Shown here one piece after another: positions 8,961-28,652 of a stretch of DNA of 40,922 bases. Source of the DNA: an uncultured Mycoplasmatota bacterium (lineage in GTDB: Bacteria; Bacillota_I; Bacilli_A; RF39; UBA660); the NCBI GenBank assembly GCA_948469065.1, contig CAOKKL010000002.1:1-40922 (forward strand). Direction: 5' to 3'. Position 1 is the stretch's first letter; every line of letters begins with the position of its first letter. The translations under genes were made by a program, and so were the position numbers. The notes under the pieces are model-generated. The model saw only the letters and a list, made by a program, of their open reading frames with translations. It made no database searches and was not told the origin of the DNA.

Positions 8961-10721
8961 TTGGAAACAAAAGAAGAATTAGAAAGGCAAAAATGGGAAA
9001 CCTTAAAGAATATTAAAAAGTCATACCATTTTGCCAAGGAAAGTAAAAAAAACTTTATTTACTATTTAATCGGTTCTATTGCGCTTTGTATTATTGGAGC
9101 TATCGTTCCTATTTTTACTGCTAAACAAATTCTTAATATATCAAATGGATTTTGGGATGAACTGCTTATTAGTACCATCGCTGTGTTTGGTTTGGAAGTT
9201 TTTCGAAATGCTTTTTCTTTTTTATCTGGGCGTAATGCTTCAAAATTTTACCGCACTACGTTAAAAAATATCCAGGTTGGAATTGCAACGGAGATTTTAA
9301 AAACTACATCATTAGAATTTAATAAAAAATCAAGTGGTTATTTTATTGAACGAATTTCTAGTGATTCCGGAAAAATTGCAGATATATATTTAAATATTTG
9401 CGATTATATTACAGAAATTATTACAAATATAGGAATTTTGGTAAGCATTTTTATTTTAAATAAATATATATTTCTATTTTATTTCTTTTTCTTAATTAGC
9501 TTATTTTTAATTCAAAAAAGAAAAAATGATGTTTTTCAAAAGAATGATAAAATTTACCGAAAAAAGAAAGAAAAAGCAACTAGTTTAATTTCTGAATTAG
9601 TAAGAGGTGCCAAAGATGTTAAAGTTTTAAATGCAGAAAGAAGTTTTTTACAGGAAGCGGAAAAAAGAATTACTTTAGCTCAGCAGTGGCGTTATAAAAT
9701 GTTTTTAACAAATCGTATTTATCGTCTTATTTATAATAATTTACGAGATATATTAGACTTTAGTTATGTTCTTTTAGTTATATTTTTAATCCGTCATGAA
9801 TTATTAGTAATTCCGACTGCAATTATTCTATTTAATTATCGAAATCAAATTATTTATACATTAGATTATATTGGCATGTTAATGGAAGCTGTTAAAGATT
9901 TCAATCTTTCTGCAAACCGTGTTTTTCAAATTATTGAAAGTGATAAAAAAGAACAATTTGGAACCAAACACATTGAAAAAGTGCATGGCGATTTTGAATT
10001 TAAAAATGTATCTTTTGCTTATGAAGAAAATGAGCCTATTTTAAAAGATATTAGTTTTAAAATTAAAGCAAATGAAACGGTATCTTTTGTTGGAAAAAGT
10101 GGTTCTGGGAAATCAACGATTTTCAATTTACTTTGCAAATTGTACGAACCAAACCAGGGCGAAATTACAATAGATGGAATTAATATTAAAGATTTAGATA
10201 AAGATTCACTGCGTGGTAATATTTCAATTATTAATCAAAGTCCTTATATTTTTAATATGAGTATTCGAGAAAATTTAAGTTTAATAAAGGAAGGTTTAAC
10301 AGAAGAAGAAATGATGGAAGCTTGTAAACTCGCATGCTTACACGATTACATTATGTCTCTTCCAAATGGCTATGATACGATTGTCGGTGAAGGTGGTGTC
10401 TCTCTTTCTGGAGGACAAAGACAACGACTTGCTATTGCAAGAGCTTTGGTTCAAAAAACAGAAATCATTTTATTTGATGAAGCAACCAGTGCTCTTGATA
10501 ATGAAACACAAAAAGAGATTCAAAATGCGATTGATAATATGCAAGGAGAATATACTATTTTAATCATAGCACATCGTCTTTCAACGGTTATTAATAGTGA
10601 TCGCTTAGTTTTTGTAGAAGATGGTGAAATTTTAGATGTTGGTACACATCAAGAATTATTACAAAAAAATAAAAGTTATCAAAAATTATATGAGTTGGAG
10701 CTAAAGGAAACAAAAAAATAA
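8961..10721 (+). CDS. ABC exporter, fused permease/ATPase (type I exporter half-transporter)
   Basis: 586 aa. N-terminal six-helix TMD, Walker A GKSGSGKST, signature LSGGQRQRLAIARAL, Walker B ILFDEATSALD. Confidence 0.88.
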   Translation: METKEELERQKWETLKNIKKSYHFAKESKKNFIYYLIGSIALCIIGAIVPIFTAKQILNISNGFWDELLISTIAVFGLEVFRNAFSFLSGRNASKFYRTTLKNIQVGIATEILKTTSLEFNKKSSGYFIERISSDSGKIADIYLNICDYITEIITNIGILVSIFILNKYIFLFYFFFLISLFLIQKRKNDVFQKNDKIYRKKKEKATSLISELVRGAKDVKVLNAERSFLQEAEKRITLAQQWRYKMFLTNRIYRLIYNNLRDILDFSYVLLVIFLIRHELLVIPTAIILFNYRNQIIYTLDYIGMLMEAVKDFNLSANRVFQIIESDKKEQFGTKHIEKVHGDFEFKNVSFAYEENEPILKDISFKIKANETVSFVGKSGSGKSTIFNLLCKLYEPNQGEITIDGINIKDLDKDSLRGNISIINQSPYIFNMSIRENLSLIKEGLTEEEMMEACKLACLHDYIMSLPNGYDTIVGEGGVSLSGGQRQRLAIARALVQKTEIILFDEATSALDNETQKEIQNAIDNMQGEYTILIIAHRLSTVINSDRLVFVEDGEILDVGTHQELLQKNKSYQKLYELELKETKK

Positions 10722-16367: not shown

Positions 16368-16740
16368 TTATAAATCATTTTTACTTTTTAAAAATTCTTT
16401 TAAAATTTTCATCAAAGCCCTTTTTTCAATTCGAGATACATAACTTCTAGAAATGCCTAATTCTTTTGCAATTTCTTTTTGTGTTTGCTCTTTTTCTAAA
16501 CAAAGGCCGTATCTTTTTTTTATAATTTCTTGTTCTCGCGGATTCAAGTCTTTTAAATAATTATTCAACAATTCTAAATTATGTTTTGTATGTAATGAAT
16601 CTGCAATATCGATTGAATTATCTTTAATAACATCAATTAAATTAATTTCATTTCCATCCTTATCATAACCAATCGAATCATTTAAACTAACATTATTGCC
16701 ATTTTTTTTATTTCCTCTAAAATACATTAAAATTTCATTT
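16368..16740 (-). CDS. sigK: sigK 3' segment (spoIIIC-equivalent): sigma regions 3-4 of sigma-K
   Basis: The translation from the junction, (N)EILMYFRGNKK...SLNDSIGYDKDGNEINLIDVIKD...QKEIAKELGISRSYVSRIEKRALMKILKEF, is collinear with the B. subtilis SigK C-terminal half. The MIPFQLVKTA start in the ORF track is element-derived and has no sigma homology. Confidence 0.9.
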
Positions 16741-18441
16741 GCTGTCTTCACCAGTTGGAAAGGTATCATCTTTTATATTTCTTGCACCTATAAAGTTAAT
16801 TGTAATATCCTCTCCATCCGTTGTTATAGAACTTACTAGGAGCTTTATTAAGTTTCTTTTGGTATTTAGGTCTAGATTATAAAATTCATTAAAATAGGTG
16901 TCTAAAACGTTTAATACAAGATCAGATGTATCTTTATCACTAATTTCATCATAGTTAGTATTGGTTAGATCTTTTATTTGCTTTTCAATCTTTATATTTT
17001 GTTCTTTTAAAGATTTAATTTCTTTAGAAACATCATCTAGCAGTTCAATATCTATATATTTAATTTTATCTAATAAAGAATTAATATCTTTTTCATTTTT
17101 TGAAAGAGATGATCTTAACGTTTTTAATTCTTCATTGTTTTTATATTCTTCTGTAAAAGTATTTTTAGAAATTTCTTTTAATGATTGATAAAATAGTGAA
17201 GTAGGATTAGCAAGTTCTTTTATTTTTTCCATTACCAAGTCATCTGCTTCCAATCCATTAATATTTTTACAATCACATTTTTGTTTTCTACTTTTTTCTT
17301 TTAACTCACACATATAATCAAATCTTCTTCTTCCGTCTTCACTAATGGTTTTGTTTTTTAATTTTGGACGCATGAAAGATCCACAATGAGAACATCTTAA
17401 AATCCCTGAAAGCAAAGCATTACTAGCAGATGGTTTTCTATAACGCATATCACTATTTTTAAGTAGTAGATCTTGAACTTCTACCCAGTCTTTACCTGTA
17501 ATGTTTCCTTTATGTTTTCCAATAGAGATGATCCAATCTTCCACATCTCTTTTAATAACAATTTTATTTTTTCCTTTGTGTTCAGTTTTATTATATACCA
17601 TTAAGCCATGACTTCCGTTAAAGTCTTTTTCTTCTGCGTAAATTTCTACATCAAACTTTTTAAAATATTCTAAAGTATCTTTATCAGCAATAGCATAAAC
17701 AGGATTCGTTAAAATATTTTTTAAAGCCCAACGTGTAAAATATTTACCATTTTTAGTTTTAATATCATTTTGAATTGTATAAGTTTCTAATTTTGTTAAC
17801 GATTTTAACTCTAACATTTTTTTAAATAGAGTAATCACGATCGGCATTTCTTCATTATCGGTTAATTTAAATAACTTTCTTTTTTTACCATCTATGGTTA
17901 TTTTTTCTATTTGTTCAGAATCAAAACCAGTGGGAGTGTTCCCACCAAGCCAACGTCCTGTTTTAGCAAGATCTATCATATTATCACGGATTCGTTCTGC
18001 AGTAGTATCTCTTTCTAATTGTGCAAAAACAGAACTCATAAACATCATAGCACGTCCACTAGGAGTTATACTTTCTATATTTTCGGTAGCTGATAAGAAT
18101 ACCACTCCGTAATTATCAAGCTCTGTTACTAAATTACTAAAATCTGTTACGTTACGACTAATTCGATCTAGTCTATAAAAAGCTATGACTTTGATTTTAT
18201 TGTTTCTTATATCTTTTAATAATCTTTGAAAATCAGGTCTATTCATATTATAACCTGTAAATCCCTCATCCTCATAAATAATAATATCATTTTCTAAATC
18301 AACATCAGGAAATTGAAAAGCTATTTTTTTCTTACACATTTCAATTTGATTCTTGGTGCTTTCTCCTTTCCCTGTATATTTTGATTTTCTAGAGTAGATT
18401 GCTATTTTACGATCATCTTTTTTCTTACTTGTACTTTGCAT
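16735..18441 (-). CDS. spoIVCA: large serine recombinase (SpoIVCA-like)
   Basis: 568 aa. Resolvase-type catalytic N-terminus (IAIYSRKSKYTGKGESTKNQ) and a recombinase domain. Zinc-ribbon cysteines (CSHCGS...YMCELKEKSRKQKCDC) and a long C-terminal coiled coil. The stop codon lies on the att core. Confidence 0.92.
   Translation of the reverse strand: MQSTSKKKDDRKIAIYSRKSKYTGKGESTKNQIEMCKKKIAFQFPDVDLENDIIIYEDEGFTGYNMNRPDFQRLLKDIRNNKIKVIAFYRLDRISRNVTDFSNLVTELDNYGVVFLSATENIESITPSGRAMMFMSSVFAQLERDTTAERIRDNMIDLAKTGRWLGGNTPTGFDSEQIEKITIDGKKRKLFKLTDNEEMPIVITLFKKMLELKSLTKLETYTIQNDIKTKNGKYFTRWALKNILTNPVYAIADKDTLEYFKKFDVEIYAEEKDFNGSHGLMVYNKTEHKGKNKIVIKRDVEDWIISIGKHKGNITGKDWVEVQDLLLKNSDMRYRKPSASNALLSGILRCSHCGSFMRPKLKNKTISEDGRRRFDYMCELKEKSRKQKCDCKNINGLEADDLVMEKIKELANPTSLFYQSLKEISKNTFTEEYKNNEELKTLRSSLSKNEKDINSLLDKIKYIDIELLDDVSKEIKSLKEQNIKIEKQIKDLTNTNYDEISDKDTSDLVLNVLDTYFNEFYNLDLNTKRNLIKLLVSSITTDGEDITINFIGARNIKDDTFPTGEDSK
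16736..16740. repeat. att core copy (CATTT plus strand / AAATG minus strand) at the sigK 3'-segment junction
   Basis: Same 5-mer, in the same codon phase (xxA AAT Gxx), as at 28331..28335. The flanking bases differ on both sides, so the core is exactly 5 bp. Confidence 0.8.
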
Positions 18442-18478
18442 ATTCCAAAATCCTTTCCAACACGTATTAATTTAATAT

Positions 18479-18487
18479 AGTATATCA
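18479..18487 (-). promoter_or_regulatory. candidate extended -10 (TGATATACT) upstream of the recombinase gene
   Basis: The minus strand reads TGATATACT about 38 nt upstream of the ATG, with an AAAGGA RBS in between. No CATA-type mother-cell -10 element is visible. Confidence 0.3.
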
Positions 18488-18520
18488 CAAATTTAAAATA
18501 ATAGATATAGTTAAACAAAA

Positions 18521-18540
18521 TAAAAAAGACTTTGAAAGTC
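18521..18540 (-). terminator. weak intrinsic terminator after the envelope-protein operon
   Basis: Minus strand GACTT-TCA-AAGTC hairpin followed by a T6 run, 5 nt after the lipoprotein stop. Confidence 0.4.
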
Positions 18541-18544
18541 AATT

Positions 18545-19525
18545 TTATTCTAAGTTTGATATTTTCCATGTATTATTATCTTTTTTGATTGTTGCGTTTA
18601 ATACTATAAATTTTGTTTCTGTACCCCCAGTACAAAGAAGTCCAGCAATACATTTTGCGTCAATTTCATAATCCATACTTACTTCTATTTTTAACTCATT
18701 ATCACTTATATAATCCCTTATAGAATATTTTAAAGAATCATCTTTTAAATTTTTAAATGTATAACTCTTATGTGAATCTTGCCAACTCTTTTTAAATTTA
18801 TTAGTTGGTAATTCAAAATCATTATTTATAAAATACTCACTAATTGCACTTTTATTATTATCAATAAATCCAACCTGTATTATATCTTTAAATATAGGTT
18901 TAATAATTTCATCTAACTCCTTTACAAATTCCTCTTTAAAGTTGGAAGTATTAAGGTCTTCATAGATAAATTCATCATAATTTCTATCACTTTCAAATTT
19001 CCAATCTTTTAATAATTCATTTGTTGCTAAATATTGATAGTAAACATTTTTAAAAGCATTAAATTTATATGTAGCTTTGTTATCATCTATTCTAGGATCT
19101 GATAGCTCTATACCATCTACACTAACTTTTGATGATTTATATGCTGTAATAGTTCTTTCTTCGTATAGATTATCTATATAAACTTTATTTGACTTTTTAT
19201 CTACTTCTATATTCATAGAATCATTTTCATTAATGGTTAATTTATAATAAATTTTATTATCATCTTCACTTGATTTCATTGGTTTGCATGATGTAATTGT
19301 TTTTTTATTTTCTTTCATTTTTTTAACTAGTAATTCTTTAGCTTCCTCTTTTTTATTAGTAAGCAATTTTTCATTAGGAAAATAGGCAATATCAATCATA
19401 TCTCCGTAATTTTCTTTAATTAATATATCACAATATTGTTCTGCAACTTTATCTGTCTTATTTCCACAACCTGTTAACATGAAAGCCATTAAAATGGCTA
19501 AACTTAAATATTTTATTTTCTTCAT
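18545..19525 (-). CDS. lipoprotein of unknown function (element cargo, gene 4 of 4)
   Basis: 326 aa. Signal peptide with a lipobox (LAILMAFMLTGCGNK). The rest is a hydrophilic mixed alpha/beta region. Confidence 0.75.
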   Translation of the reverse strand: MKKIKYLSLAILMAFMLTGCGNKTDKVAEQYCDILIKENYGDMIDIAYFPNEKLLTNKKEEAKELLVKKMKENKKTITSCKPMKSSEDDNKIYYKLTINENDSMNIEVDKKSNKVYIDNLYEERTITAYKSSKVSVDGIELSDPRIDDNKATYKFNAFKNVYYQYLATNELLKDWKFESDRNYDEFIYEDLNTSNFKEEFVKELDEIIKPIFKDIIQVGFIDNNKSAISEYFINNDFELPTNKFKKSWQDSHKSYTFKNLKDDSLKYSIRDYISDNELKIEVSMDYEIDAKCIAGLLCTGGTETKFIVLNATIKKDNNTWKISNLE

Positions 19526-19545
19526 TTTTTTTAATTCCTTTCTTA

Positions 19546-20154
19546 TTATAAGCTAGATGTATTAATTGTACGATCTGAATTTGTACTAATTAATTGGTAT
19601 ACATTTAAGGTAGCATAGTCTTTATCATAACTATCTACAAATAACATTTCAGTAGTTGACTTATCACAATCATCTTTACACCACATGCTAGACACCTTTA
19701 TCTTTGTTTTTTCTCCTGATTTTAAGCTTATGGTTTCTTTTCCCCTAATTGCAAATGATCTCCCATTAGAATCTTTTAAGAAGAGTATATAACCAATATT
19801 ATCGATGGTTTCTTTTGATGTATTTTTTATAGTAAATTCGTATTCCACATCTCCAGCAAGTGTTTTATTATTATTTACTTTATTTTCTTTATGTTTTAAT
19901 TTAATTCCACTAACAGAAACTTTATCAAAATTTTTCACTTCGTTAAATGTATAATAATTGTATTCTGCTGATGTAGGATGTACTACATTAGCCAAAACGA
20001 CTTTTTCACTACTGCCACTACTTAATAGAGTAATGCCAGCAATTCCGATAATTGCAATAGCTCCACCAATTACAACTTTTTTTACTCCAATTTTTATAAC
20101 TTGATCTTTTATTTTTTTTACAATTTCTTTTCCTTTTTCTAATAAATTATCCAT
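19546..20154 (-). CDS. membrane-anchored small beta-rich extracytoplasmic protein (element cargo, gene 3 of 4)
   Basis: 202 aa. One N-terminal TM helix (VVIGGAIAIIGIAGITLL) followed by a ~140-aa beta-sandwich-like region (EYEFTIKNTSKETIDNIGYILFLKD...). A resemblance to DUF4352 is only a guess. Confidence 0.65.
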   Translation of the reverse strand: MDNLLEKGKEIVKKIKDQVIKIGVKKVVIGGAIAIIGIAGITLLSSGSSEKVVLANVVHPTSAEYNYYTFNEVKNFDKVSVSGIKLKHKENKVNNNKTLAGDVEYEFTIKNTSKETIDNIGYILFLKDSNGRSFAIRGKETISLKSGEKTKIKVSSMWCKDDCDKSTTEMLFVDSYDKDYATLNVYQLISTNSDRTINTSSL

Positions 20155-20178
20155 ATTATTTTACCTCATTTCCTTTTT

Positions 20179-22194
20179 TTAATCTTTTTGATAAGCACTT
20201 TCACATGATATGTCAGTGCATTTCATCACCCTAATTTTAGATTGATCTAAATTAGAAATACCTGTCAATCCTTGTATTTTACCTTTATCATCAACATTAG
20301 TGGGATATATATAATATCCACTTTCAATGTCATAGCCAGTTTCAGTCTTTCCTGTACCAGTAATTATATAATAAGATCCATCATCCTGTTTTTTAACACT
20401 TTGGTATTTTTGTGTACTCCATTTTGTAGTAAATGTTCCATCTTTACTTATAGTTAAAGAACTATTTGAATAAGTACCAACATAACAAGAAAAATCTCCA
20501 TTTAATAATTGTTCCTCACATTTATCTTTTATTTTTCCCTCTAATGTTATAATCGGTATTTTCTTTTCATAGGTAGCTTCTGCTTTAGCTATTTCTAATT
20601 TCCATATATGAAAGTTAGCATATAATCCAGCACTTACAAAAGTACCTATTTCCATTTTCCCGTCTAGTTCATCTTGATTATTAGATTTTATATAATTTAG
20701 TTGTCCATCTGTATATAAACCAACTGGAGCTTTTATACCTGCTTCCATTACTCCCAAAAAACTAATATTAACTTTTGGATCTAAACCAATTTTTGCTTCT
20801 GCTTTTCCTAAAATATCGTAAGAACTATCTTTAACACTTAAATCAAAATCTTTATAGAATCCTTTATTGTTATGTCCGAATAGAATATTGATATTACTTT
20901 TCATAGTTATAGATGATTTTAAAGCAAGTTCTAACTCTTTTAATAAATCTAATTCAAGATTCACAGTAAGTCCAAAAATAGGAGTAGGAATTATATGTTT
21001 TCCAAGTGTATCTTCTTCTTTAGAAGAATCCATTTTTAAATCTTCTAATTTTTCACGAGCAAGTGTTATATTTACTTCTTCATTATCATTAATTTCACTT
21101 TCAAATAATTTAAAGTCATCATCAATAGGATTAATATTAAAATCTGTATTTATATCTATATCAAGACTAGCACCTACATCATGTTTAAAGAAAGTTATCT
21201 CACTATGAGCTTTTAATCTAATAATAAATTCAACATCTAATTTCATATCATGATTTTCTAAAGTATCCTTAAAAATTGATTTTTCACCATGATTCAAGTT
21301 AATACTAACTAAAACTTTAGCACTTCCATCTTTTTGAGATTCTACTTTAACATTAAAAATATCTTCGGCATAAACATTAGGAATAATATTATCTAATATT
21401 CCATCTCTTGCTATGGCAACTTTAATATAGTCTTTTAATTCCTCATTGGTTATAAAATCATTTAATTTTAGATTAAACTCTCCATATACATCTAATTCTT
21501 TAAATAATTCCTCTAGAGTAGGAGCATTTGTTTTAATAGTATATAGATCATTTTCTTTATTTATATTATTTACCTTAAAAGCTATTACTTGATTTTCATT
21601 TTGATAATATAAAATATCATCTTTTTTAAATTCTTTATTAGATGTAATTGTATAATAATTGTCATCAATTTTAACACTTGTAATAATATCTTTATCTACT
21701 TTAATAACATTATCATTTAATACTTGCGTATTTGAATTTGGTCTAACGATTGTAAAATACAAAGTCTTAATATCTTTTAATTTTTCATCTGTGAAAGTTG
21801 CATTCTCTAAAGTGATTTTATATGTTTTTCCTGCTTCATAATTTTTATTAGAAGCTATTACATAATCATTTTTCTTTTTACTTATTTTTGTTTGAATTTC
21901 TTGTTCTTCTTCATCAACAATTTTATATTTTATTTCTTCATCTTGACTAGATACATTAAATTTAATATCAGCATTAGCTTTCATTAAATAATAATCTCCA
22001 TTTTCATATTGTACTAAATAATCACTAGAATCCGTTATTTTTAATGTTTCTCCAACAATAAATTCATCATTTTTATTATTTACCAAATAGTAGATCAGAC
22101 CACCAGCAATAAGTAATATTAAAATAATAATAGGAATAACAAATTTTTTATTTTTCATGTTTTTAAGCACATGGTTTCTAACTTGCTTTTTCAT
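20179..22194 (-). CDS. large membrane-anchored extracytoplasmic protein of unknown function (element cargo, gene 2 of 4)
   Basis: 671 aa. N-terminal TM helix (FVIPIIILILLIAGGLIYYLV) followed by about 630 aa of beta-rich sequence. The C-terminal Cys-containing module is CEEQLLNGDFSCY...CTDISCES. Confidence 0.7.
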   Translation of the reverse strand: MKKQVRNHVLKNMKNKKFVIPIIILILLIAGGLIYYLVNNKNDEFIVGETLKITDSSDYLVQYENGDYYLMKANADIKFNVSSQDEEIKYKIVDEEEQEIQTKISKKKNDYVIASNKNYEAGKTYKITLENATFTDEKLKDIKTLYFTIVRPNSNTQVLNDNVIKVDKDIITSVKIDDNYYTITSNKEFKKDDILYYQNENQVIAFKVNNINKENDLYTIKTNAPTLEELFKELDVYGEFNLKLNDFITNEELKDYIKVAIARDGILDNIIPNVYAEDIFNVKVESQKDGSAKVLVSINLNHGEKSIFKDTLENHDMKLDVEFIIRLKAHSEITFFKHDVGASLDIDINTDFNINPIDDDFKLFESEINDNEEVNITLAREKLEDLKMDSSKEEDTLGKHIIPTPIFGLTVNLELDLLKELELALKSSITMKSNINILFGHNNKGFYKDFDLSVKDSSYDILGKAEAKIGLDPKVNISFLGVMEAGIKAPVGLYTDGQLNYIKSNNQDELDGKMEIGTFVSAGLYANFHIWKLEIAKAEATYEKKIPIITLEGKIKDKCEEQLLNGDFSCYVGTYSNSSLTISKDGTFTTKWSTQKYQSVKKQDDGSYYIITGTGKTETGYDIESGYYIYPTNVDDKGKIQGLTGISNLDQSKIRVMKCTDISCESAYQKD

Positions 22195-23159
22195 TAGTAT
22201 TTTCTCCTACGTCTTTCTTCATCTATATATTTCTGTACGTCATTCATACTTTTAGCTATTGCTTTAAAACTTTCATTATTTTCTTTTTCTCTTTGTTCTC
22301 GTTCTTGACGTTCTCTTTGTTTTTCTCTTGCTTCCTTTTCTAAAATTTTCTTTTTTTCTAATTCTAGCTCATATAATCTTTGACGTTCCAATTCTTGACT
22401 ACGTTCATCTATATATAAATTTATACAATCTGTTAGATTATCACGTCTATTCGTTTCTAAATATTTAATAAATCTCTCTATTGCGTCTTGATTTTGATAA
22501 TCATTATGTAATTCTTTTTTTGTGATTTTTTCTCTTTTTTTGCTATTTTGATCAAGATTTTTTTCTAATTCTTCAATTAAAGTTGTAAGTTCATCTTTTC
22601 TTTGTTCATATATTTTTTTATTTTCAGCAATCACATTATCTTTAGTAGCCATATATCTAATATAGTCTATAAGATACCAAATAAGACATATAGGCAAACA
22701 TACTATTAATGATAAAAACATTCCAAATAAACAAGCTATTACAGAATTCAAATAATAATTAATAGGTAAAATTTTAAATATATTTAATAAGATTAAAATT
22801 CCAACTAGAGATAATATTGTTTTTAATATGCTATCAATTTTCTTATAGATGAAAATAGCTATAATGGATACTAATATAGATATTGGTACGTATAAGGTCA
22901 TTGGTACGTTATAACCTAAAGGATGGAATAACTTTAATACTAGAATTAAAGTAAGTATAGATATTAATATATAAACAATTTTTAAGATAAGATTATTACC
23001 TATGAATTCAAAAATTCTATTAAATCTATGTACTTTTGGCTTTAGTAAAGCTAATTCTTTTGATAAATTAGATTTTTGATCTTGCCAGTTATCTCTTTCA
23101 ATCACTAATTCCTTTAATGATTTTAAATTTTTTATTAGTTTTTCTTTGGTATTCCCCAT
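22194..23159 (-). CDS. polytopic membrane protein with coiled-coil/charged cytoplasmic tails (element cargo, gene 1 of 4)
   Basis: Start moved to ATG 23159 (MGNTKEK), behind an AGGGAGTG RBS. There are 4-5 hydrophobic helices in the middle. The C-terminal tail is KE/R-rich (EKEAREKQRERQEREQREKEN...ERRRRKY). Its stop overlaps the next start (TAATG). Confidence 0.65.
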   Translation of the reverse strand: MGNTKEKLIKNLKSLKELVIERDNWQDQKSNLSKELALLKPKVHRFNRIFEFIGNNLILKIVYILISILTLILVLKLFHPLGYNVPMTLYVPISILVSIIAIFIYKKIDSILKTILSLVGILILLNIFKILPINYYLNSVIACLFGMFLSLIVCLPICLIWYLIDYIRYMATKDNVIAENKKIYEQRKDELTTLIEELEKNLDQNSKKREKITKKELHNDYQNQDAIERFIKYLETNRRDNLTDCINLYIDERSQELERQRLYELELEKKKILEKEAREKQRERQEREQREKENNESFKAIAKSMNDVQKYIDEERRRRKY

Positions 23160-23311
23160 AAATAAAAGCCACACTCCCTAACAATAAATATTTTCTATTT
23201 AAGTATAGCATATTTTTGTTAAAAAAGACACCTATTATAGAACTTTTGCCTATAATATACATATTAAAAACATCTACTATAAATGAGAAAATATATATAG
23301 GTGGTGATAAT

Positions 23312-23581
23312 ATGAATTTTAGCCCTGAAGATGACAGATATATTTACGAATTAGTCAGTAAGAATATAAAGTATTTTAGACTTCATAATAATAGTAAATA
23401 TAGCTCGTATGGGAAAATGACACAAGAACAGCTTGCAGAAAAATGTGATTTAAGTCATAGTCTAATTAGTAACATAGAGTCTTCTAAAGTTCAACAATCT
23501 TTTAGTATCGCCGTACTATATAGAATCTCTCGTGTTTTAGAAATAGACATTAAAGAGTTTTTTGTTGATCGTAAACTTTAA
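23312..23581 (+). CDS. XRE-family HTH regulator
   Basis: Start taken at ATG 23312 (MNFSPEDD), behind an AGGTGGTGA RBS. The HTH_3-like core is MTQEQLAEKCDLSHSLISNIES. It is divergent from the cargo operon. Confidence 0.75.
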   Translation: MNFSPEDDRYIYELVSKNIKYFRLHNNSKYSSYGKMTQEQLAEKCDLSHSLISNIESSKVQQSFSIAVLYRISRVLEIDIKEFFVDRKL

Positions 23582-23631
23582 TATTTATTAATGTTTATAT
23601 AGAGTATGATTTTAAATTTTGTCGAAACTAC

Positions 23632-23675
23632 AAAAAAAGATATGGATTCAATAATTAGATTCCATATCTTTTTAA
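23632..23675 (+). terminator. intrinsic terminator (A-run / 9-13 bp stem / T-run)
   Basis: AAAAAAGATATGGA...TCCATATCTTTTT. The core stem is 23638..23646 paired with 23661..23669. Confidence 0.6.
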
Positions 23676-23805
23676 ATATACCAAAACTTTCTTAATATAT
23701 ACCTTTTTTATAAATTTATTTACCATTATAGGTTATGTTATCATTTATTTGTCAACGAAATACTAGTTAATTGTTGAAAAATAAAAATTGAAAGGACATG
23801 GTATT

Positions 23806-24252
23806 ATGAGTAGAATGATTTCTAAAGAACAACAAATAGAAGAAGCAAAAGAAAGATTAAAGAGACTATCTAAAAAATTCAATTTAAACCCTGTTATCTT
23901 AAATGTTTTTGAGCAAGGAAAAATAAAGGTATTTAGAAATAATGAATTGATTGATCTTGATTCAATGCCTGAATACAAAAAAATGGTTGCTGATTTTGAA
24001 GAAGAGTATAATCACGTTGTCTTTTATTGTATAGAAGAAAAATATAGTTTTGGTAGATGCTTATCTTTGTTATGTGTAGGAAATATAAAAATATATTGGA
24101 AAACAGAGAGATTGTTCCATTATGGATATGATTTTAAATATGAAGATATATATATGATTTCTACATATACATATAATTTAGATGATCCTGATTGCTCTGA
24201 ATTTGGAGATATTCGTATTGCTAGTAAAAATGGTTGTTTGATTAGAATATAG
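23806..24252 (+). CDS. hypothetical protein (element cargo)
   Basis: Start taken at ATG 23806 (MSRMISKEQ), behind a GAAAGGA RBS. 148 aa, soluble, no recognised motif. Confidence 0.6.
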   Translation: MSRMISKEQQIEEAKERLKRLSKKFNLNPVILNVFEQGKIKVFRNNELIDLDSMPEYKKMVADFEEEYNHVVFYCIEEKYSFGRCLSLLCVGNIKIYWKTERLFHYGYDFKYEDIYMISTYTYNLDDPDCSEFGDIRIASKNGCLIRI

Positions 24253-24253
24253 T

Positions 24254-24290
24254 AAAAAATCATAGATTTCAAAAGTCTATGATTTTTTTT
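24254..24290. terminator. bidirectional intrinsic terminator between convergent genes
   Basis: AAAAAATCATAGA-TTTCAAAAG-TCTATGATTTTTTTT. An A-run and a T-run flank the 8-bp core stem (24259..24266 paired with 24276..24283). Confidence 0.65.
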
Positions 24291-24299
24291 GATCAATTA

Positions 24300-24890
24300 T
24301 TAATCTATTTTGGTGCAATTATATTTTGCTTGTTTAGGAGATGGAGATAGAAATAATTTAGCATATTTTTCTTTTAATTGTTCAAGTTCAAAACTAAATG
24401 CTTCTTGTGATATTTCTCCATTTTCTTTTTTTCGTTCTAATAATTTTTTATGATGAAAGTATTCTAGTAAATATTCATTTATAGAAAAATTTAATACTAG
24501 TAATGGATCTTCTTCATTATCTGCTAGTGGGAATTCAATATTAGAAATTTGTTCAAATGCTAATTCAGACATTATTTCATTTTCATTCATATAATCACTT
24601 ATTCCAAATAAATAATCCAAACTAACTTCATGTTTTTTAGCTATTTTCAAAGCTTTATCTAATGTTAACCCACAACTACCTTTTTCAATAGCTCTTAATG
24701 TTTCATCACTAAAACCATCAATTTCATCTAAAAATTCACCAACACTTAACCCTAATTTTTTTCGTAAATCTCTCACTCGGTTTTTAGAAATATTCTTTAC
24801 TTCATGATTTTGGCTATCGACATTTACCTTTTTATCCTCATCATCACTAAATATTTCTTGTATGCTTTCTGTCCTTTTAACCTCTAACAT
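24300..24890 (-). CDS. XRE-family HTH regulator with extra N- and C-terminal regions (candidate element repressor)
   Basis: Start taken at ATG 24890 (MLEVKRT), behind a GAGAGGT RBS. The HTH_3-like core is LGLSVGEFLDEIDGFSDETLRAIEKG...VSLDYLFG. It is divergent from rep. Confidence 0.75.
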   Translation of the reverse strand: MLEVKRTESIQEIFSDDEDKKVNVDSQNHEVKNISKNRVRDLRKKLGLSVGEFLDEIDGFSDETLRAIEKGSCGLTLDKALKIAKKHEVSLDYLFGISDYMNENEIMSELAFEQISNIEFPLADNEEDPLLVLNFSINEYLLEYFHHKKLLERKKENGEISQEAFSFELEQLKEKYAKLFLSPSPKQAKYNCTKID

Positions 24891-24964
24891 ATAATTACCT
24901 CTCATTTAAATATAAATAACAAAACTTTTTCAATAAGTACCTATTTTTACAAATATATTTACCA

Positions 24965-25011
24965 TATAACTTTATTGTAAAATATAGTTATACCTTATAG
25001 CATTTATTGTA
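24965..25011 (+). promoter_or_regulatory. inverted repeat plus two direct repeats upstream of rep (candidate operator or origin)
   Basis: Inverted repeat TATAACT (24965..24971) / AGTTATA (24986..24992) with a 14-nt loop. TTTATTGTA occurs twice (24971..24979 and 25003..25011), 32 bp apart. Confidence 0.3.
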
Positions 25012-25047
25012 TCAAATGTAGCAATATTTAAAAATTTTTGTAAAGGA

Positions 25048-26079
25048 GTGATCATTATAGCTAAACAAGTTAAAAAAGATAGTCAAGCAAGAAGCTATCA
25101 AATTACACAGAATAATCCTAGCAAATATAATATTACTAGAGAAAGTTTTAAGGAAACTATATTAAAATTTAAACCTATTTATTATTGTATTTCGGAAGAA
25201 ATAGGAATTAAAGAAAAAACTCCACATTACCATGCTTATTTTAAGTGTTCTAGTCCAGTAAGATTCTCGACTTGTAAAAAAAGATTTAAATATGCCCATA
25301 TAGAACAAGCTCTTGGAAGTGCAACTGATAATCGTAATTATCTTATGAAAACAGATAAATACATAGATAAAAATGAAACTTTAATTGATTTTGAAGAAGC
25401 TGGAGAGATCCCACAAACTACAAAAGAAAAAAGGTTATCGGAAAAAGCAGAAGTGCTTCAAAAAATAAAGGATAGGAAAACCAATTTAGAAATTATAGAA
25501 GAAAATGAAAATTTATTATTTCATTTAAAAGATATAGAGAATATTAGACAAGAATATCTAAAAGAAAAATATTCAACTGAATTTAGGGATGTTTGCTGTA
25601 CCTTTATATACGGAGCTACAGAAACCTATAAGACAACTTATGTATATTCCAAATATAATGCAAAAGATATTTTTAGGATCTATAATTATCAAAATTTAAA
25701 TTCATTATGGGATGGTTATACGGGACAATCTGTAATCCTATTTGATGAATATAAAGGTCAAATACCTATTGAATTAATGCTGATATTAACGGATCGATTT
25801 CCAGTGCTAAATTTAAACGCAAGGTACAATAATAAAATAGCCATGTACAGTCAAATTTATTATTGCACGAACGAATGTTTTGATAATATTTATGCTTATG
25901 AGAAAGTCATGCACCCTGCAACATATAAAGCATGGGAAAGAAGAATCCATAATATATACGAATTTAGGAAAAATTCTGATGGATCTCCTAATGTTATAGT
26001 CCATAAAGAAACGAAAAAGGAGGGTTTTTCTAATGAACGAACCAAAGAAAATAAAGAAGAAAAAGATCAGACTATCTGA
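25048..26079 (+). CDS. replication initiator with HUH endonuclease + SF3-helicase-like layout
   Basis: Motif I YQITQNNP, motif II PHYHAYF (HUH at 25225..25233), motif III NRNYLMKTDK (YxxK). These are followed by a P-loop-like GATETYKT, Walker B VILFDEY and motif C YYCTNE. The exact start is uncertain because the GTG overlaps the RBS. Confidence 0.8.
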   Translation: MIIIAKQVKKDSQARSYQITQNNPSKYNITRESFKETILKFKPIYYCISEEIGIKEKTPHYHAYFKCSSPVRFSTCKKRFKYAHIEQALGSATDNRNYLMKTDKYIDKNETLIDFEEAGEIPQTTKEKRLSEKAEVLQKIKDRKTNLEIIEENENLLFHLKDIENIRQEYLKEKYSTEFRDVCCTFIYGATETYKTTYVYSKYNAKDIFRIYNYQNLNSLWDGYTGQSVILFDEYKGQIPIELMLILTDRFPVLNLNARYNNKIAMYSQIYYCTNECFDNIYAYEKVMHPATYKAWERRIHNIYEFRKNSDGSPNVIVHKETKKEGFSNERTKENKEEKDQTI

Positions 26080-27583
26080 TATATATAGAAAAATAGAAAC
26101 AAAATATTTACAGGTATATCACAATTGGAGACTCTATATTGTAAAGGTTATTATATTGTTCTTAACAATATTTCTTTTACTAATATTTAATTTAAATTTG
26201 AATAACATACCTTATTTTAATAAAATCAATTTAAACTTTCCATTAATAGATAATCTAATAAAAAAGAAAATAAACTTATTTTATGTTGTTATTTATATAC
26301 TATCAACGATTCCGATTATTGTGATATGTAAATCATTTTTTAAATCAATAAAATATGAAAATAAAGATGAACAATTAGCAAAAGCATTAATGCCTAATGC
26401 TAGTGAAGAAAAAAGAGAAGAATTATCTTCTAAAACAATTGTAATGTATCCTAATCCTTATAATAAAGATAATGAATATTGGATGCTTTATAAAAATTGT
26501 GTTCCTTATAATGTTATTTTTGATAAAAAGGAACTAATACAAAATTTTTTAGATGGTCAATATGTAAAAGGAACTAAAAATTATGGTTCTAACAAAGCAT
26601 TAATTAATTTGAGCAAAACAGATCCATCCGATCCTAAACCAATTAATTGGGATGATAAATTTCTTATTTCTTATAAAGGTGGTAGTCCAAAATTTAATCT
26701 TGGAATTACCAATTTTGATGAACCATACTATTGGGACACGAAAAAATTAATACACGAAAAACTTGGTGGAACCACAGGTGCTGGGAAAACAATAGTTCAA
26801 AAATCAATTTGCTACCAAGCACTTATGCAAAATTGTGAGCTTTTTATATATGATGGGAAACAGATCGATTATACAGGAATATGGAAAAGATTAAAAAATT
26901 GCACGATTGTTAATAGTATGAAAGGATTTCAAAATATGGTTAAAATGGTATATGAAATTCATTTGATGAGAAATAAAGAGTTTAAATTTCCATTTTATAA
27001 TATAGATAATTTTAATAGATTTAAAAAACCAATTCAACCAAGAAAGCATATTTTTCTTGTTATAGAAGAAGCTGCTGATATATTTGATATTGATGTTAAA
27101 ACCTTATCAAAAGAGGAAAAAAGTGAGTATTTAAATTGTATAGAAATTTTAAAAGAAATAGCTCGTAAAGGACGTGCAACAGGATGTCATCTGTGCGTAA
27201 ATAGTCAACGTCTTTCAGCTGATATTATACCACCTCAAATAAATTCATGCCTCAAATTCAAATTTTGTGGCTTTGCTGATAATATTTTATCTAATATTAT
27301 GGTAGAAAATACCGACGCACACGATTTATTAAAAGATGGTGTTGCTGGTATGTTTGTAGATGGAAACCATAATGTCATACAAACCTATTATATAGATAGT
27401 GAAATAGAACAAGCTATTTTAAAACCATTTGAAATTACAAGAAAAACAATGTCTGATATTCATGCAAGATATGATATTGGAGAAGAAGAACTTGAAATTG
27501 ACGGAGATAAATTTGTAAAAGATTATGTAGAAGATAAAGAAGCAATAGATCCTAATTATTTTAAAGTTAGGAAAGATAATTAG
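26033..27583 (+). CDS. membrane-anchored FtsK/SpoIIIE-family DNA translocase (TraB/TcpA/coupling-protein-like)
   Basis: 516 aa. GGAGGG RBS. Two N-terminal TM helices. Walker A GGTTGAGKT, Walker B FLVIEEAADIF, and the FtsK motif GRATGCHLCVNSQRLSADIIPPQI. Confidence 0.85.
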   Translation: MNEPKKIKKKKIRLSDIYRKIETKYLQVYHNWRLYIVKVIILFLTIFLLLIFNLNLNNIPYFNKINLNFPLIDNLIKKKINLFYVVIYILSTIPIIVICKSFFKSIKYENKDEQLAKALMPNASEEKREELSSKTIVMYPNPYNKDNEYWMLYKNCVPYNVIFDKKELIQNFLDGQYVKGTKNYGSNKALINLSKTDPSDPKPINWDDKFLISYKGGSPKFNLGITNFDEPYYWDTKKLIHEKLGGTTGAGKTIVQKSICYQALMQNCELFIYDGKQIDYTGIWKRLKNCTIVNSMKGFQNMVKMVYEIHLMRNKEFKFPFYNIDNFNRFKKPIQPRKHIFLVIEEAADIFDIDVKTLSKEEKSEYLNCIEILKEIARKGRATGCHLCVNSQRLSADIIPPQINSCLKFKFCGFADNILSNIMVENTDAHDLLKDGVAGMFVDGNHNVIQTYYIDSEIEQAILKPFEITRKTMSDIHARYDIGEEELEIDGDKFVKDYVEDKEAIDPNYFKVRKDN

Positions 27584-27629
27584 AATTTACCTTAATAAAA
27601 TTCATATATTTTATTGAGGGGGTGTTTGC

Positions 27630-27827
27630 TTGAAAGTCTACGTCAATTTACCACAAACACCTGAGGAAAGGAAAGAATTAGCAAATGGCGTAGCCAGATT
27701 CCATGCTACACTTATGCTAGAAAAAATTAAAAAATTAAATATCAATGATTCTTCTAAAGAAAAAGTTTTAAATTTAGTTTTAGATCATTTTAAAGAAGAA
27801 TCAAAAAAAGAATGTATAAGTGATTAG
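27630..27827 (+). CDS. small hypothetical protein (65 aa)
   Basis: TTG start behind a GAGGGGG RBS. Predicted helical. No recognised motif. Confidence 0.5.
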   Translation: MKVYVNLPQTPEERKELANGVARFHATLMLEKIKKLNINDSSKEKVLNLVLDHFKEESKKECISD

Positions 27828-28090
27828 CTCATACATTTTTTTAGTTTATTATATTTTTCACGTGAAATATGACAATTCCCATTTTCCCATCTACGAACAG
27901 AAGTATCTGAAACTTGGAGCATATCTGCAAATCTTACTAAAGACAGATTCATCTGTTTCCTTATGGATTTAATTTTTTCACAAGGATCATTTAAAAGAAA
28001 ATTTATATAATCATCATTAATTATCAGTTTATCTTCGATTTCAAGTTCTTTGATAACAGATTCTAATAATTTTATATCTACTAGCTTCAT
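27824..28090 (-). CDS. XRE-family HTH protein; its frame stays open upstream to 28243 and encodes a second HTH without a start codon
   Basis: The 88-aa ORF carries the HTH MNLSLVRFADMLQVSDTSVRRWENG. The 51 in-frame codons upstream read NTRRKLKPINEFSTIGEQIKYYRVLQDIKQEDLCKKLGVTRGALFHIENRD, with no ATG/GTG/TTG/CTG. Confidence 0.6.
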   Translation of the reverse strand: MKLVDIKLLESVIKELEIEDKLIINDDYINFLLNDPCEKIKSIRKQMNLSLVRFADMLQVSDTSVRRWENGNCHISREKYNKLKKCMS

Positions 28091-28330
28091 ATCTCTATTT
28101 TCTATATGAAATAATGCTCCTCGTGTAACTCCTAGCTTCTTGCATAAATCTTCTTGTTTTATATCTTGTAATACACGATAATACTTTATTTGTTCTCCAA
28201 TCGTGCTAAACTCATTAATTGGCTTTAGTTTTCTTCTAGTGTTTTAATGGTTATTTCTGTTTGGATGGTATCTCTTAATCTGTAAAAAAGATCACTAATT
28301 CCTACACAACTTTCCAATAGGTGTATATTG

Positions 28331-28335
28331 CATTT
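28331..28335. repeat. att core copy (CATTT plus strand / AAATG minus strand) at the sigK 5'-segment junction
   Basis: Identical to 16736..16740 and in the same codon phase of sigK. Confidence 0.8.
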
Positions 28336-28652
28336 TCAATACATCTTGCTACATAAGTTGTAATTCTTGTGGCTTTTTCTTTATTATAAGAGTCGATTCC
28401 TTTAATGAGACCAATGGTACCAATACTAATTAAATCATCGGTATCTGTATCTTTTGTTTCAAATTTTTTAACGATGTGTGCTACTAATCTTAAATTATGT
28501 TCAATCAATTTATTTCGTGCTGTTTGGTTTCCTGCTAACATTTCATTAATACATTTTTCCTCTTCTTCTAAACTAAGTGGATCTGGAAAAACTTGATTTG
28601 AATAAGATCCCGTAAAGAAAAAAAGACTTTTGATTAATTGAATTAAAAACAT
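28331..28652 (-). CDS. sigK: sigK 5' segment (spoIVCB-equivalent): pro-sequence and sigma region 2
   Basis: MFLIQLIKSLFFFTGSYSNQVFPDPLS (hydrophobic pro-sequence) followed by ARNKLIEHNLRLVAHIVKKFE...DLISIGTIGLIKGIDSY...TYVARCIEN. After the core, the ORF runs into 9 unrelated codons (AIYTYWKVV) and a TAG. Confidence 0.9.

Follow-up and report, generated by a model that had tools for sequence, protein, structure and literature searches.

The sigma factor gene sigK is split by a large insert in the DNA analyzed here (the window: 40,922 nucleotides, positions 1 to 40,922 on the forward strand of contig CAOKKL010000002.1, assembly GCA_948469065.1, from an uncultured Mycoplasmatota bacterium). The insert is probably an integrative mobilizable element (IME), or an integrated rolling-circle plasmid, built from two modules and present in the window as an origin-less copy. 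The first module is a site-specific recombination unit directed at sigK, and the second is a DNA-processing unit that pairs a circovirus-like Rep protein with a membrane ATPase resembling TcpA. Elements that interrupt sigK have hitherto been interpreted as dead prophages retained for a role as developmental switches. The insert described here appears instead to be a mobilizable element of the rolling-circle type with a recent history of movement among gut Firmicute species.

The element is bounded by two copies of a 5-bp core, AAATG, at 16736-16740 and 28331-28335. On the minus strand the left junction reads ...TGT ATT GAA AAT G|CA ATA TAC... and the right junction reads ...GAC AGC AAA TG|A AAT TTT AAT G.... 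In silico joining of the flanks across the core restores the residues C-I-E-N-E-I-L-M and creates an in-frame 229-aa SigK with a pro-sequence, which scores 317.5 bits on the NCBIfam SigK model NF004471 (cut-off 252). In the interrupted state the region-2 open reading frame (ORF) extends past its junction inside the element to 28302 (28302..28652, minus strand), and the ORF of the region-4 fragment spans 16368..16769 (minus strand). Identical junctions are found in the related loci L001, L011-L014, and L017, and the site is kept in seven loci. An imperfect inverted repeat, CACCTATTGGAAAG and CTTTCCAACTGGTG, flanks the core at the two element ends, as expected for the attP attachment site of a serine integrase, and the attP junction predicted for the excised circle is …GAAGACAGCAAATGCAATATACAC…. 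The ratio of nonsynonymous to synonymous substitution rates (dN/dS) between the window and L013 is 0.04 for the 5' half of sigK and 0.014 for the 3' half. Purifying selection on both halves indicates that the split gene is still used and that excision must work.

A plasmid or IME backbone without prophage genes had been proposed in the first-pass annotation of this DNA, and this proposal is upheld. PHROGs returned no convincing structural, packaging, or lysis match among the element proteins. The matches that touch on phage functions are weak: the FtsK-like protein scores 26 bits against a terminase ATPase family and 119 bits against the FtsK-like family, and the signal peptide of a lipoprotein gives a spanin-like match of only 18.5 bits. 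A prophage origin was rejected on this basis, with PHROGs yielding only regulators, the integrase, and the FtsK-like ATPase, and the terminase match reflecting weak similarity within the ATPase superfamily. Neither mating-pore nor phage genes were detected in the element or in the window flanks by Pfam, PHROGs, or PADLOC.

Rep and the overlapping ATPase gene

The 343-aa protein had been described from its sequence as a Rep with HUH motifs I-III followed by the Walker motifs of a superfamily 3 (SF3) helicase. This description is supported by Pfam, a 17-sequence alignment, a family-profile match to porcine circovirus 2 (PCV2) Rep, and the predicted fold, with a departure in Walker A noted below. 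Pfam matches Viral_Rep over residues 15-101 (24.9 bits, gathering score 26) and RNA_helicase over residues 186-274 (22.2 bits, cut-off 21.5). Motif I (xxTxNNP, with N23 and P24) and motif III (R96-x-Y98-x-x-K101, with Y98 as the catalytic tyrosine of YxxK) are invariant in the alignment. Motif II is T58-P-H60-Y-H, the HYH form, in which T58 and H60 are invariant among the 17 sequences; the most distant members have HxQ. The invariant SF3 residues are G189..K195-T196 in Walker A, D233-E234 in Walker B, N275 in motif C, and R299. The Walker A motif (residues 189-196, window 25612-25635) is GATETYKT and has a tyrosine in place of the normally invariant second glycine. This tyrosine (GxTxTYKT) is conserved across the close clade, whose members are 51-95% identical to the window Rep, and is present in 11 of the 139 family members with a recognizable motif; a few others have histidine or asparagine.

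The proposed kinship with Reps of circular Rep-encoding single-stranded (CRESS) DNA viruses and their bacterial plasmid relatives also holds. The Rep family profile matches PCV2 Rep (7lar) on both domains with E 1.9e-18, and the nuclease-domain profile matches the PCV2 and MDCV Reps. The AlphaFold model (predicted local distance difference test score, pLDDT, 80.6) matches a redondovirus Rep at 3e-12, the PCV2 ATPase domain with a template modeling (TM) score of 0.8, and circovirus and nanovirus nuclease domains with TM scores of ~0.75. Bacterial CRESS-like Reps have been divided into nine groups, pCRESS1-9 (Kazlauskas, Varsani, Koonin & Krupovic 2019, PMC6668415). The window Rep is 39% identical over its full length (E 1e-60) to the pCRESS2 Rep BAK32345.1 from Erysipelothrix, listed in the supplement to that paper, and its putative affiliation with pCRESS2 goes by sequence identity rather than phylogeny. 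The sole plasmid match is RepA of the Bifidobacterium free plasmid p4M (29% identical, pCRESS3). An indexed search across 5.8 billion proteins yielded no more than 18 clusters; an exhaustive profile search returned 18,683 representatives at E<=1e-3, of which 918 were at E<=1e-30, and Rep is therefore a member of a large superfamily.

The rep gene overlaps the gene for the 516-aa ATPase by 47 nt. Two N-terminal hydropathy peaks in the 516-aa protein (residues ~31-60 and ~79-104) correspond to two membrane helices, and both the overlap and the helices agree with the first reading of these ORFs. The protein matches Pfam FtsK_SpoIIIE with 24.7 bits (cut-off 24) and the FtsK/SpoIIIE-like family of PHROGs at 2.4e-34; its Walker A and B motifs are GGTTGAGKT and VIEE. 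The best match in the PDB is TcpA of pCW3 (6o1w-z) at 4e-19, compared with 5.6e-5 for FtsK. The best plasmid matches are on Clostridium perfringens plasmids, where the gene after tcpM in the Tcp locus is tcpA, and the ATPase is 29% identical to the product of the tcpA gene adjoining tcpM on pCpb2-CP1. Beyond the ATPase domain the C-terminus is a short acidic tail that lacks a recognizable DNA-binding domain. These similarities suggest that the ATPase is a TcpA-type protein rather than an FtsK, and a role as coupling protein would follow from that kinship.

If the ATPase acted in segregation, the insert could be an integrated plasmid and nothing else: Rep would replicate the circle, the ATPase would segregate it, and spread would occur by a route such as transformation after mother-cell lysis. 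Supplementary Note 1 of PMC6668415 calls these elements integrated plasmids and names the protein 'FtsK-like DNA segregation ATPase', a free relative exists in p4M, and the origin described below resembles a replication origin. The ATPase of the window is nevertheless much nearer TcpA than FtsK and has the two-helix membrane anchor of TcpA. Moreover, the streptococcal PF02407 Reps are all paired with TcpA, the known cases of mobilization by relaxases of the rolling-circle replication (RCR) type involve TcpA-type helpers, and members of the family are found nearly all integrated and not free. A plasmid without mobilization is unlikely on this evidence, although it retains some weight.

The first-pass annotation had likened the gene set both to IMEs and to actinomycete integrative and conjugative elements (AICEs). 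The IME half of this comparison stands on the recombinase, the relaxase candidate, and the lack of pore genes; the AICE half is a poorer fit, given the TcpA-type ATPase and the variable membrane proteins. In a self-transmissible element of the AICE kind, an FtsK/TraB-like ATPase alone would move double-stranded DNA and the membrane proteins would be Spd. The gene lists are similar (rep, FtsK-like, int, and several membrane proteins), and TcpA proteins are described as distant TraB relatives. In contrast to that expectation, the host is a low-GC Firmicute (the window has a GC content of ~27%), the membrane proteins vary from copy to copy (L001, L013, and L218 lack them or have others in their place), the ATPase tail is short and acidic with no recognizable DNA-binding domain, and Rep together with a hairpin origin indicates single-strand processing. 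Transfer of the AICE type is very improbable for this element.

The origin hairpin and its deletion

Most related loci have a hairpin upstream of rep. In L011 it lies 63 nt from the gene as ATGCTATAAG-TA-TAGTATTAC-CTTATAGCAT, a perfect 10-bp stem whose loop contains TAGTATTAC, the canonical nonamer of circoviruses and nanoviruses. Of 78 related loci, 64 have upstream of rep a NNNTATTAC loop (mostly TAGTATTAC) closed by a stem of 6 bp or more. The stems, for example AAAGTGGG/CCCACTTT in L018 and TACAACCCCTT/AAGGGGTTGTA in L021, are unrelated in sequence, which indicates that structure and not sequence is conserved (covariation). Hairpins of this kind have a density of ~1.5 per kb in the regions upstream of rep compared with ~0.04 per kb elsewhere. 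The origin hairpin folds in L011, L018, and L001 (z -2.1 to -2.95), whereas the window sequence does not. Tandem hexamers, TTGTA[G/T]C ... TGTAGC, follow the hairpin in L001, L007, and L011-L018 and look like iterons. Biochemical work on circovirus and geminivirus Reps established that CRESS Reps cut the nonamer at TAGTATT|AC.

The window is among the few loci without the origin hairpin. The spacer between the helix-turn-helix (HTH) gene and rep is 143 nt in the window and 580 nt in L011-L017, and ~438 nt are deleted relative to these loci. The deleted segment held a conserved 64-aa ORF and a second hairpin, GTAAGAC-N5-GTCTTAC (L011:9682-9876 and 9889-9925, respectively), along with the 5' arm of the origin stem. 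Compensatory changes are seen in the second hairpin in L013 and L017 (GTAAGGC/GCCTTAC), and the 64-aa ORF has no PDB, Pfam, or PHROG match. A remnant of the origin consisting of the 3' stem arm and two hexamers is retained, and no canonical nonamer is left anywhere in the window element. Nonamer-like hairpins at 25511 and 27292 inside the element were rejected as chance matches of a relaxed pattern in AT-rich coding DNA.

Comparison with L011 locates the deletion join within a hybrid nonamer. The window reads ...AAATATAGTTAT|ACCTTATAGCAT... at the scar; in L011 the left counterpart continues as ...AAATATAGTTAT|CAAGCC and the right counterpart is ...AAGTATAGTATT|ACCTTATAGCAT. The left side of the scar is a pseudo-site in L011, ...ATATAGTTAT|CAAGCC, and the right side is the AC found just after the canonical cut in TAGTATT|AC. 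The join coincides with the canonical nick position T7|A8 with a 1-nt ambiguity, and the donor side is nonamer-like, with 9 of the 12 bases before the cut matching. Three independent assemblies with this exact Rep share the scar, which shows that the deletion is real and inherited and not an assembly artifact. Six assemblies of a 93%-identical Rep variant retain the hairpin and the 64-aa ORF. Public sequencing runs containing the window variant are SRR29149397, SRR26637620, and DRR813934; SRR27310732 and SRR27304218 are examples for the variant whose origin is intact.

The most economical reading of the scar is a cleavage-joining event carried out by Rep, and the scar would then be indirect evidence that these Reps act on the nonamer in cells. 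Ordinary replication slippage or a recombination accident, with the nick-site coincidence arising by chance, could also remove such a segment: the short repeat TATAGT is common to both deletion ends, and AT-rich DNA is prone to slippage. Slippage on TATAGT predicts ...TATAGTATTACC, whereas the window has ...TATAGTTAT|ACC, in which three bases of the upstream copy follow the repeat. The join is also at the canonical T7|A8, and by simple arithmetic over the intergenic region a random endpoint would fall within 1 nt of it ~2 times in 580. An accident of this kind is quite unlikely. A sigK element able to replicate as a circle and be transferred, the unusual combination raised in the first-pass annotation, is plausible for the family and unlikely for this copy, in which the origin hairpin is lost. 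The window copy probably still excises, yet most likely cannot start replication or transfer.

A search of metagenomes with a 16-mer of the origin gave mostly chance matches, and the full hairpin was found only in L080, L086, L091, L105, L135, L150, L174, and L200. L200 is an IMG/VR contig of 2,441 bp that carries the same stem, GCTATAAG...CTTATAGC, around a CAGTATTAC loop at positions 1398-1424. No homologue of the window Rep was detected on this contig by tblastn at 1e-5.

Recombination unit, relatives, and spread

The features of the element are collected in Table 1. The gene for the serine recombinase ends exactly at the crossover site, with its stop codon (TGA) overlapping the att core AAATG (16735-16740), and the same overlap is found in L001 and L011-L017. 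The recombinase is 37-42% identical to integrases of clostridial temperate phages. The CP51 phage integrase (42% identical) was rejected as a counterpart, the 3' end of its gene having no matching att arrangement. Homologues at 58-76% identity are numerous; among those examined, the recombinases of L001, L217, and L218 adjoin a sigK 3' fragment and that of L219 does not.

Table 1. Features of the sigK-intervening element and its boundaries (window positions)
Feature	Positions	Strand	Basis or content
sigK-intervening element	16736..28330	.	11,595 bp, one AAATG core copy counted
sigK 3' half (regions 3 and 4)	16368..16740	-	Pfam Sigma70_r4 8.5e-18
Large serine recombinase, 568 aa	16735..18441	-	Pfam Resolvase, Recombinase, and Zn_ribbon_recom; PHROG integrase 2e-99
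Lipoprotein, cargo	18545..19525	-	No significant family
Membrane protein, 202 aa, cargo	19546..20154	-	
Membrane protein, 671 aa, cargo	20179..22194	-	
Membrane protein, 326 aa, cargo	22194..23174	-	
Regulatory/accessory block	23216..24905	.	HTH 121 aa (+), conserved 154-aa protein (+), HTH 201 aa (-); Pfam HTH_3
Deletion scar, hybrid nonamer TAGTTAT|AC (scar sequence TAGTTATAC)	24985..24993	+	Comparison with L011
Origin remnant	24994..25022	+	3' stem arm CTTATAGCAT; hexamers TGTATC (25008-25013) and TGTAGC (25017-25022)
Rep, HUH endonuclease fused to SF3 helicase, pCRESS2 type, 343 aa	25048..26079	+	
TcpA-like FtsK-family ATPase, 516 aa, candidate coupling protein	26033..27583	+	
65-aa ORF, candidate recombination directionality factor	27630..27827	+	
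88-aa HTH protein beside att site	27824..28090	-	Pfam HTH_3 1.9e-7
sigK 5' half (pro-sequence and region 2)	28331..28652	-	Pfam Sigma70_r2 5.9e-15

Two small genes appear to belong to the recombination unit. The 65-aa ORF is 57% identical in L001 and 57% identical in L218, where the same recombinase and HTH protein occur without Rep or the TcpA-like protein. Its retention in L218 indicates that it accompanies the recombinase and not Rep. It has a dN/dS of 0.1-0.2 and no family match in Pfam or PHROGs, and by its association it is a candidate directionality factor. The 88-aa HTH protein is kept beside the sigK 5' fragment in L001 (66% identical) and L218 (48%) and is a candidate regulator of the unit.

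The cargo block (18545..23174) gave no significant Pfam, PHROG, or PADLOC family. A defense island was considered and rejected, with PADLOC returning nothing for the cargo and only generic HerA/FtsK-type matches for the ATPase. In the accessory block, the 154-aa protein has no PDB, Pfam, or PHROG match, and a 38%-identical relative sits directly upstream of rep in the tyrosine-integrase element L018. The chromosomal genes on one side of the element include mutL, miaA, and aminoacyl-tRNA synthetases, and those on the other include divIVA, sepF, relA/spoT, smc, and rnc.

The same element is present in L011-L017, which represent seven GTDB species, come from gut metagenomes of mouse and other sources, and are labeled uncultured Bacilli, Erysipelotrichaceae, or 'Tenericutes'. 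Six of these loci show the sigK fragments, and the sequence of L016 ends short of them. L001 and L002 have an element of the same layout in sigK with a 50%-identical Rep and entirely different cargo. A survey for the backbone outside sigK found the Rep-ATPase pair with other integrases in four loci: L009 and L018 contain Rep, the TcpA-like protein, an Xis-like HTH_17 protein, and a tyrosine integrase; L003 contains a type III restriction-modification system, the TcpA-like protein, Rep, and a different serine recombinase; and L007 contains Rep, the TcpA-like protein, and another serine recombinase. In dozens of loci in Clostridia, genes for Xis and a tyrosine integrase come after that of a Rep with 33-38% identity. 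The converse arrangement is found in L218, whose sigK insert is bracketed by the recombinase, HTH protein, and 65-aa ORF and lacks both Rep and the TcpA-like gene. In a comparison of the window with L001, the proteins of the recombination unit are 76%, 66%, and 57% identical, Rep is 50% identical, and the TcpA-like protein is 32% identical. These unequal identities fit independent histories of the two modules, and by sequence comparison the element is a mosaic in which a Rep/TcpA-like module is combined with a recombination unit specific for sigK.

Three of the related loci have further unusual arrangements. On the metagenome-assembled genome (MAG) contig of L218 (2176-12062; its recombinase cluster, P0226, is labeled Oscillospiraceae by NCBI), sigK is apparently interrupted twice: near codon 58 it directly adjoins the gene of a second serine recombinase (562 aa), and its first 58 codons were not seen in the vicinity. 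In L217 (1-12059), a 72%-identical recombinase lies by the sigK 3' fragment, and a Replic_Relax (MobC-type) relaxase, a TrwB/TraG-type (VirD4-type) coupling protein, and a tyrosine integrase are found within 10 kb; this locus may represent another kind of mobilizable backbone inserted in sigK, or one element nested in another. In L003 (13314-18451), cotJA-cotJB and a 59-aa stub of Mn_catalase (cotJC) adjoin the Rep/TcpA-like element, followed by two unrelated genes and then by a complete second cotJA-cotJB-cotJC set. Another spore gene may have been disrupted or duplicated there.

Divergence of the element was compared with divergence of the host sigK genes. Among relatives that carry the element, its genes are up to 100% identical and the host sigK fragments are 34-97% identical. 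Between the window and L011 the element proteins are 92-100% identical with dS of 0-0.17, whereas the SigK proteins are 71-74% identical and synonymous differences in sigK are near saturation (proportion of synonymous sites that differ, pS, 0.6-0.79). In L014 and L017 the host genes are ~70% identical in nucleotide sequence and the element is 80-90% identical. In L012 (1026-13606, uncultured Bacilli MAG MGBC122606), an 81-97% identical element lies in a sigma gene that is only 34-38% identical. This sigma gene has no pro-sequence and scores 177 bits on SigK and 169 bits on SigE, in each case under the cut-off; the SigK and SigE families alike retain the recombinase target RCI[D/E]NEILMY. An element far more alike than the sigK genes of its hosts indicates recent horizontal transfer between species, and on these sequence comparisons the element is far younger than the divergence of its hosts.

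Several observations weigh against the interpretation of the insert as a mobilizable rolling-circle element. The attP junction of the excised circle had no match in JGI metagenomes or IMG/VR, where the host may be missing. No conjugative helper element is visible within the window. No sporulation promoter was identifiable, and a scan for sigma-70 promoters and terminators, with 81 sites against 99.6 expected, was uninformative in AT-rich DNA. The FtsK-like gene of the pCRESS elements was labeled a segregation ATPase and not a coupling protein by Kazlauskas et al. 2019 (PMC6668415). The Viral_Rep score of Rep is 1 bit under the gathering score, the tyrosine that replaces the second Walker A glycine could impair ATPase activity, and the deletion could in principle have occurred without Rep. 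Finally, Rep of L007 (9208-10220) is called as two ORFs (129 and 215 aa), and the TcpA-like gene of L013 (11043-12574) aligns in two reading frames with an apparent frameshift. These two breaks may be decay or errors in the assembly of metagenome bins.

Decay of the Rep/ATPase module throughout the family, with the element persisting because sigK needs excision, would account for the breaks in L007 and L013, the deviant Walker A loop, and the lack of an origin in the window copy. Selection on the module argues otherwise. When the window is compared with its relatives, Rep has the lowest dN/dS of the element, 0.06-0.10 at dS values up to 0.75; the TcpA-like protein has a dN/dS of ~0.2 and the recombinase one of 0.05-0.16. 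The catalytic residues of Rep are invariant, the hairpin is kept with compensatory stem changes in the 64 loci noted above, and the youth of the element relative to the hosts that share it is not expected of a relic. A decayed remnant, which the first-pass annotation had named as the outcome that would undo its proposal, is thus seen in part, in the frameshifted copies, and is offset by purifying selection across the family and movement from species to species. As an account of the whole family it is hardly credible.

Proposed mechanism and comparison with known systems

The proposed mechanism joins the two modules. In the first, the serine recombinase would act at the AAATG core within the C-I-E-N-E-I-L-M codons, together with the HTH protein and the 65-aa candidate directionality factor, to insert the element into sigK, and precise excision would be needed for SigK to be made. 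Excision may be under the control of sporulation. In the second module, of the pCRESS2 kind, the circovirus-like Rep of intact relatives would nick the excised circle at TAGTATT|AC in the hairpin loop ~60 nt upstream of rep, leading to rolling-circle replication, to a single strand for transfer, or to both. The TcpA-like ATPase would pass this strand to a mating pore supplied by a helper conjugative element, since the insert itself encodes no pore. We infer both that Rep nicks the nonamer and that it caused the deletion. The deletion could have arisen by premature termination at the pseudo-site during rolling-circle synthesis on the excised circle, or by strand transfer between two sites cut by Rep. 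Either route would leave a copy that can no longer be nicked, and the window copy would persist only as an excisable sigK insert that does not initiate replication or transfer in cis.

A more speculative extension, which we regard as rather improbable, links transfer to sporulation in hosts with an intact origin. Excision in the mother cell would restore sigK and also free a circle for amplification by Rep or for a helper pore. The mother cell would be a cost-free donor while the spore keeps its copy, and the scar would be the fossil of such a round followed by re-integration.

These findings bear on how the sigK insertion site is used by mobile DNA. The sigK-targeting recombination unit is shared in nature among different kinds of mobile DNA, which had been seen earlier only in engineered swaps. 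The bacterial relatives of circovirus Reps gain a clearly identifiable origin, TAGTATTAC in a hairpin loop, around which nicking and transfer experiments are easy to design, and the origin-less copy with its nick-site scar is a natural control.

The backbone of Rep, FtsK-like protein, and integrase is already described (PMC6668415, Supplementary Note 1; PMC5357655), and the union of the Rep/TcpA module with a sigK-targeting serine-recombinase unit appears to be undescribed. In the literature searched, no Rep/TcpA backbone was described for a sigK insert, no serine recombinase was reported on a pCRESS element, and the nonanucleotide was not mentioned for such elements, none of which is proof of absence. 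Tyrosine recombinases integrate most pCRESS elements at specific sites, chiefly tRNA genes or rpsI; an FtsK-like ATPase is common to groups 1-3, 5, and 8, and pCRESS2 includes Erysipelotrichia and a Mollicutes bacterium (PMC6668415). The window element resembles pCRESS2 elements such as EryRhu-E1 of Erysipelothrix rhusiopathiae in its HUH and SF3 Rep related to BAK32345.1, the HUH form of motif II, the asparagine of motif C, the FtsK-like ATPase, the lack of viral structural genes, and a chromosomal location in Firmicutes including Erysipelotrichia. It differs in using a large serine recombinase and sigK in place of tyrosine integrases and tRNA genes or rpsI, in having DE in Walker B where EE is said to be typical, in the Walker A tyrosine, and in the loss of the origin from this copy. 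The single-strand DNA-binding protein gene reported in pCRESS elements was not recognized in the window element by Pfam or PHROG.

Streptococcal elements with a PF02407 'relaxase', TcpA, and a tyrosine integrase were independently classed as IMEs (Coluzzi 2017, PMC5357655; Guedon 2017, PMC5704250), and helpers with TcpA-compatible pores were proposed in these papers. Like IME_SiniSF1_ebfC, the window element is compact, combines an RCR-initiator-type putative relaxase with a TcpA-type protein and an integrase, and has no pore genes; L009 and L018 have the exact set of relaxase, TcpA, Xis, and tyrosine integrase. The streptococcal elements belong to pCRESS1 (StrIni-E1) and use tyrosine integrases, whereas the window element has Rep followed by the TcpA-like gene, with a sigK-specific serine recombinase at the far end. 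Mobilization is undemonstrated for either.

The skin elements of Bacillus subtilis and Clostridioides difficile and phiS63 of C. perfringens likewise lie in frame in sigK with a large serine recombinase at one end, and precise excision restores sigK (here in silico); the 65-aa ORF is a candidate for the directionality role that Skr and CD1234 have in their elements. Those elements are defective or active prophages, whereas the window element has a rolling-circle and mobilization module instead. Suzuki et al. 2019 swapped recombination units experimentally between phages, skin, and an integrative conjugative element. That a non-viral element can interrupt a sporulation gene is established by gin in gerE of Bacillus cereus ATCC 10987 (Abe et al. 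2017, PMC5595907), which is excised by a serine recombinase together with a small factor and for which the authors suspected conjugative spread. PMC5595907 mentions neither a replication gene nor an FtsK gene for gin, whereas the window element has Rep and a coupling-protein homologue, and its relatives have an origin. AICEs, with rep, traB, int, and spd, are not the closest comparison, given the TcpA affiliation of the ATPase, the unconserved membrane proteins, and the low-GC Firmicute host. Circoviruses and nanoviruses share the two-domain Rep fold (PCV2 Rep, 7lar and 6wdz), and relatives of the window element share with them a hairpin with the identical nonamer TAGTATTAC and short direct repeats by rep. 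The window element differs from these viruses as a 12-kb bacterial integrative element that has no capsid gene and is presumably double-stranded and chromosomal for most of its existence.

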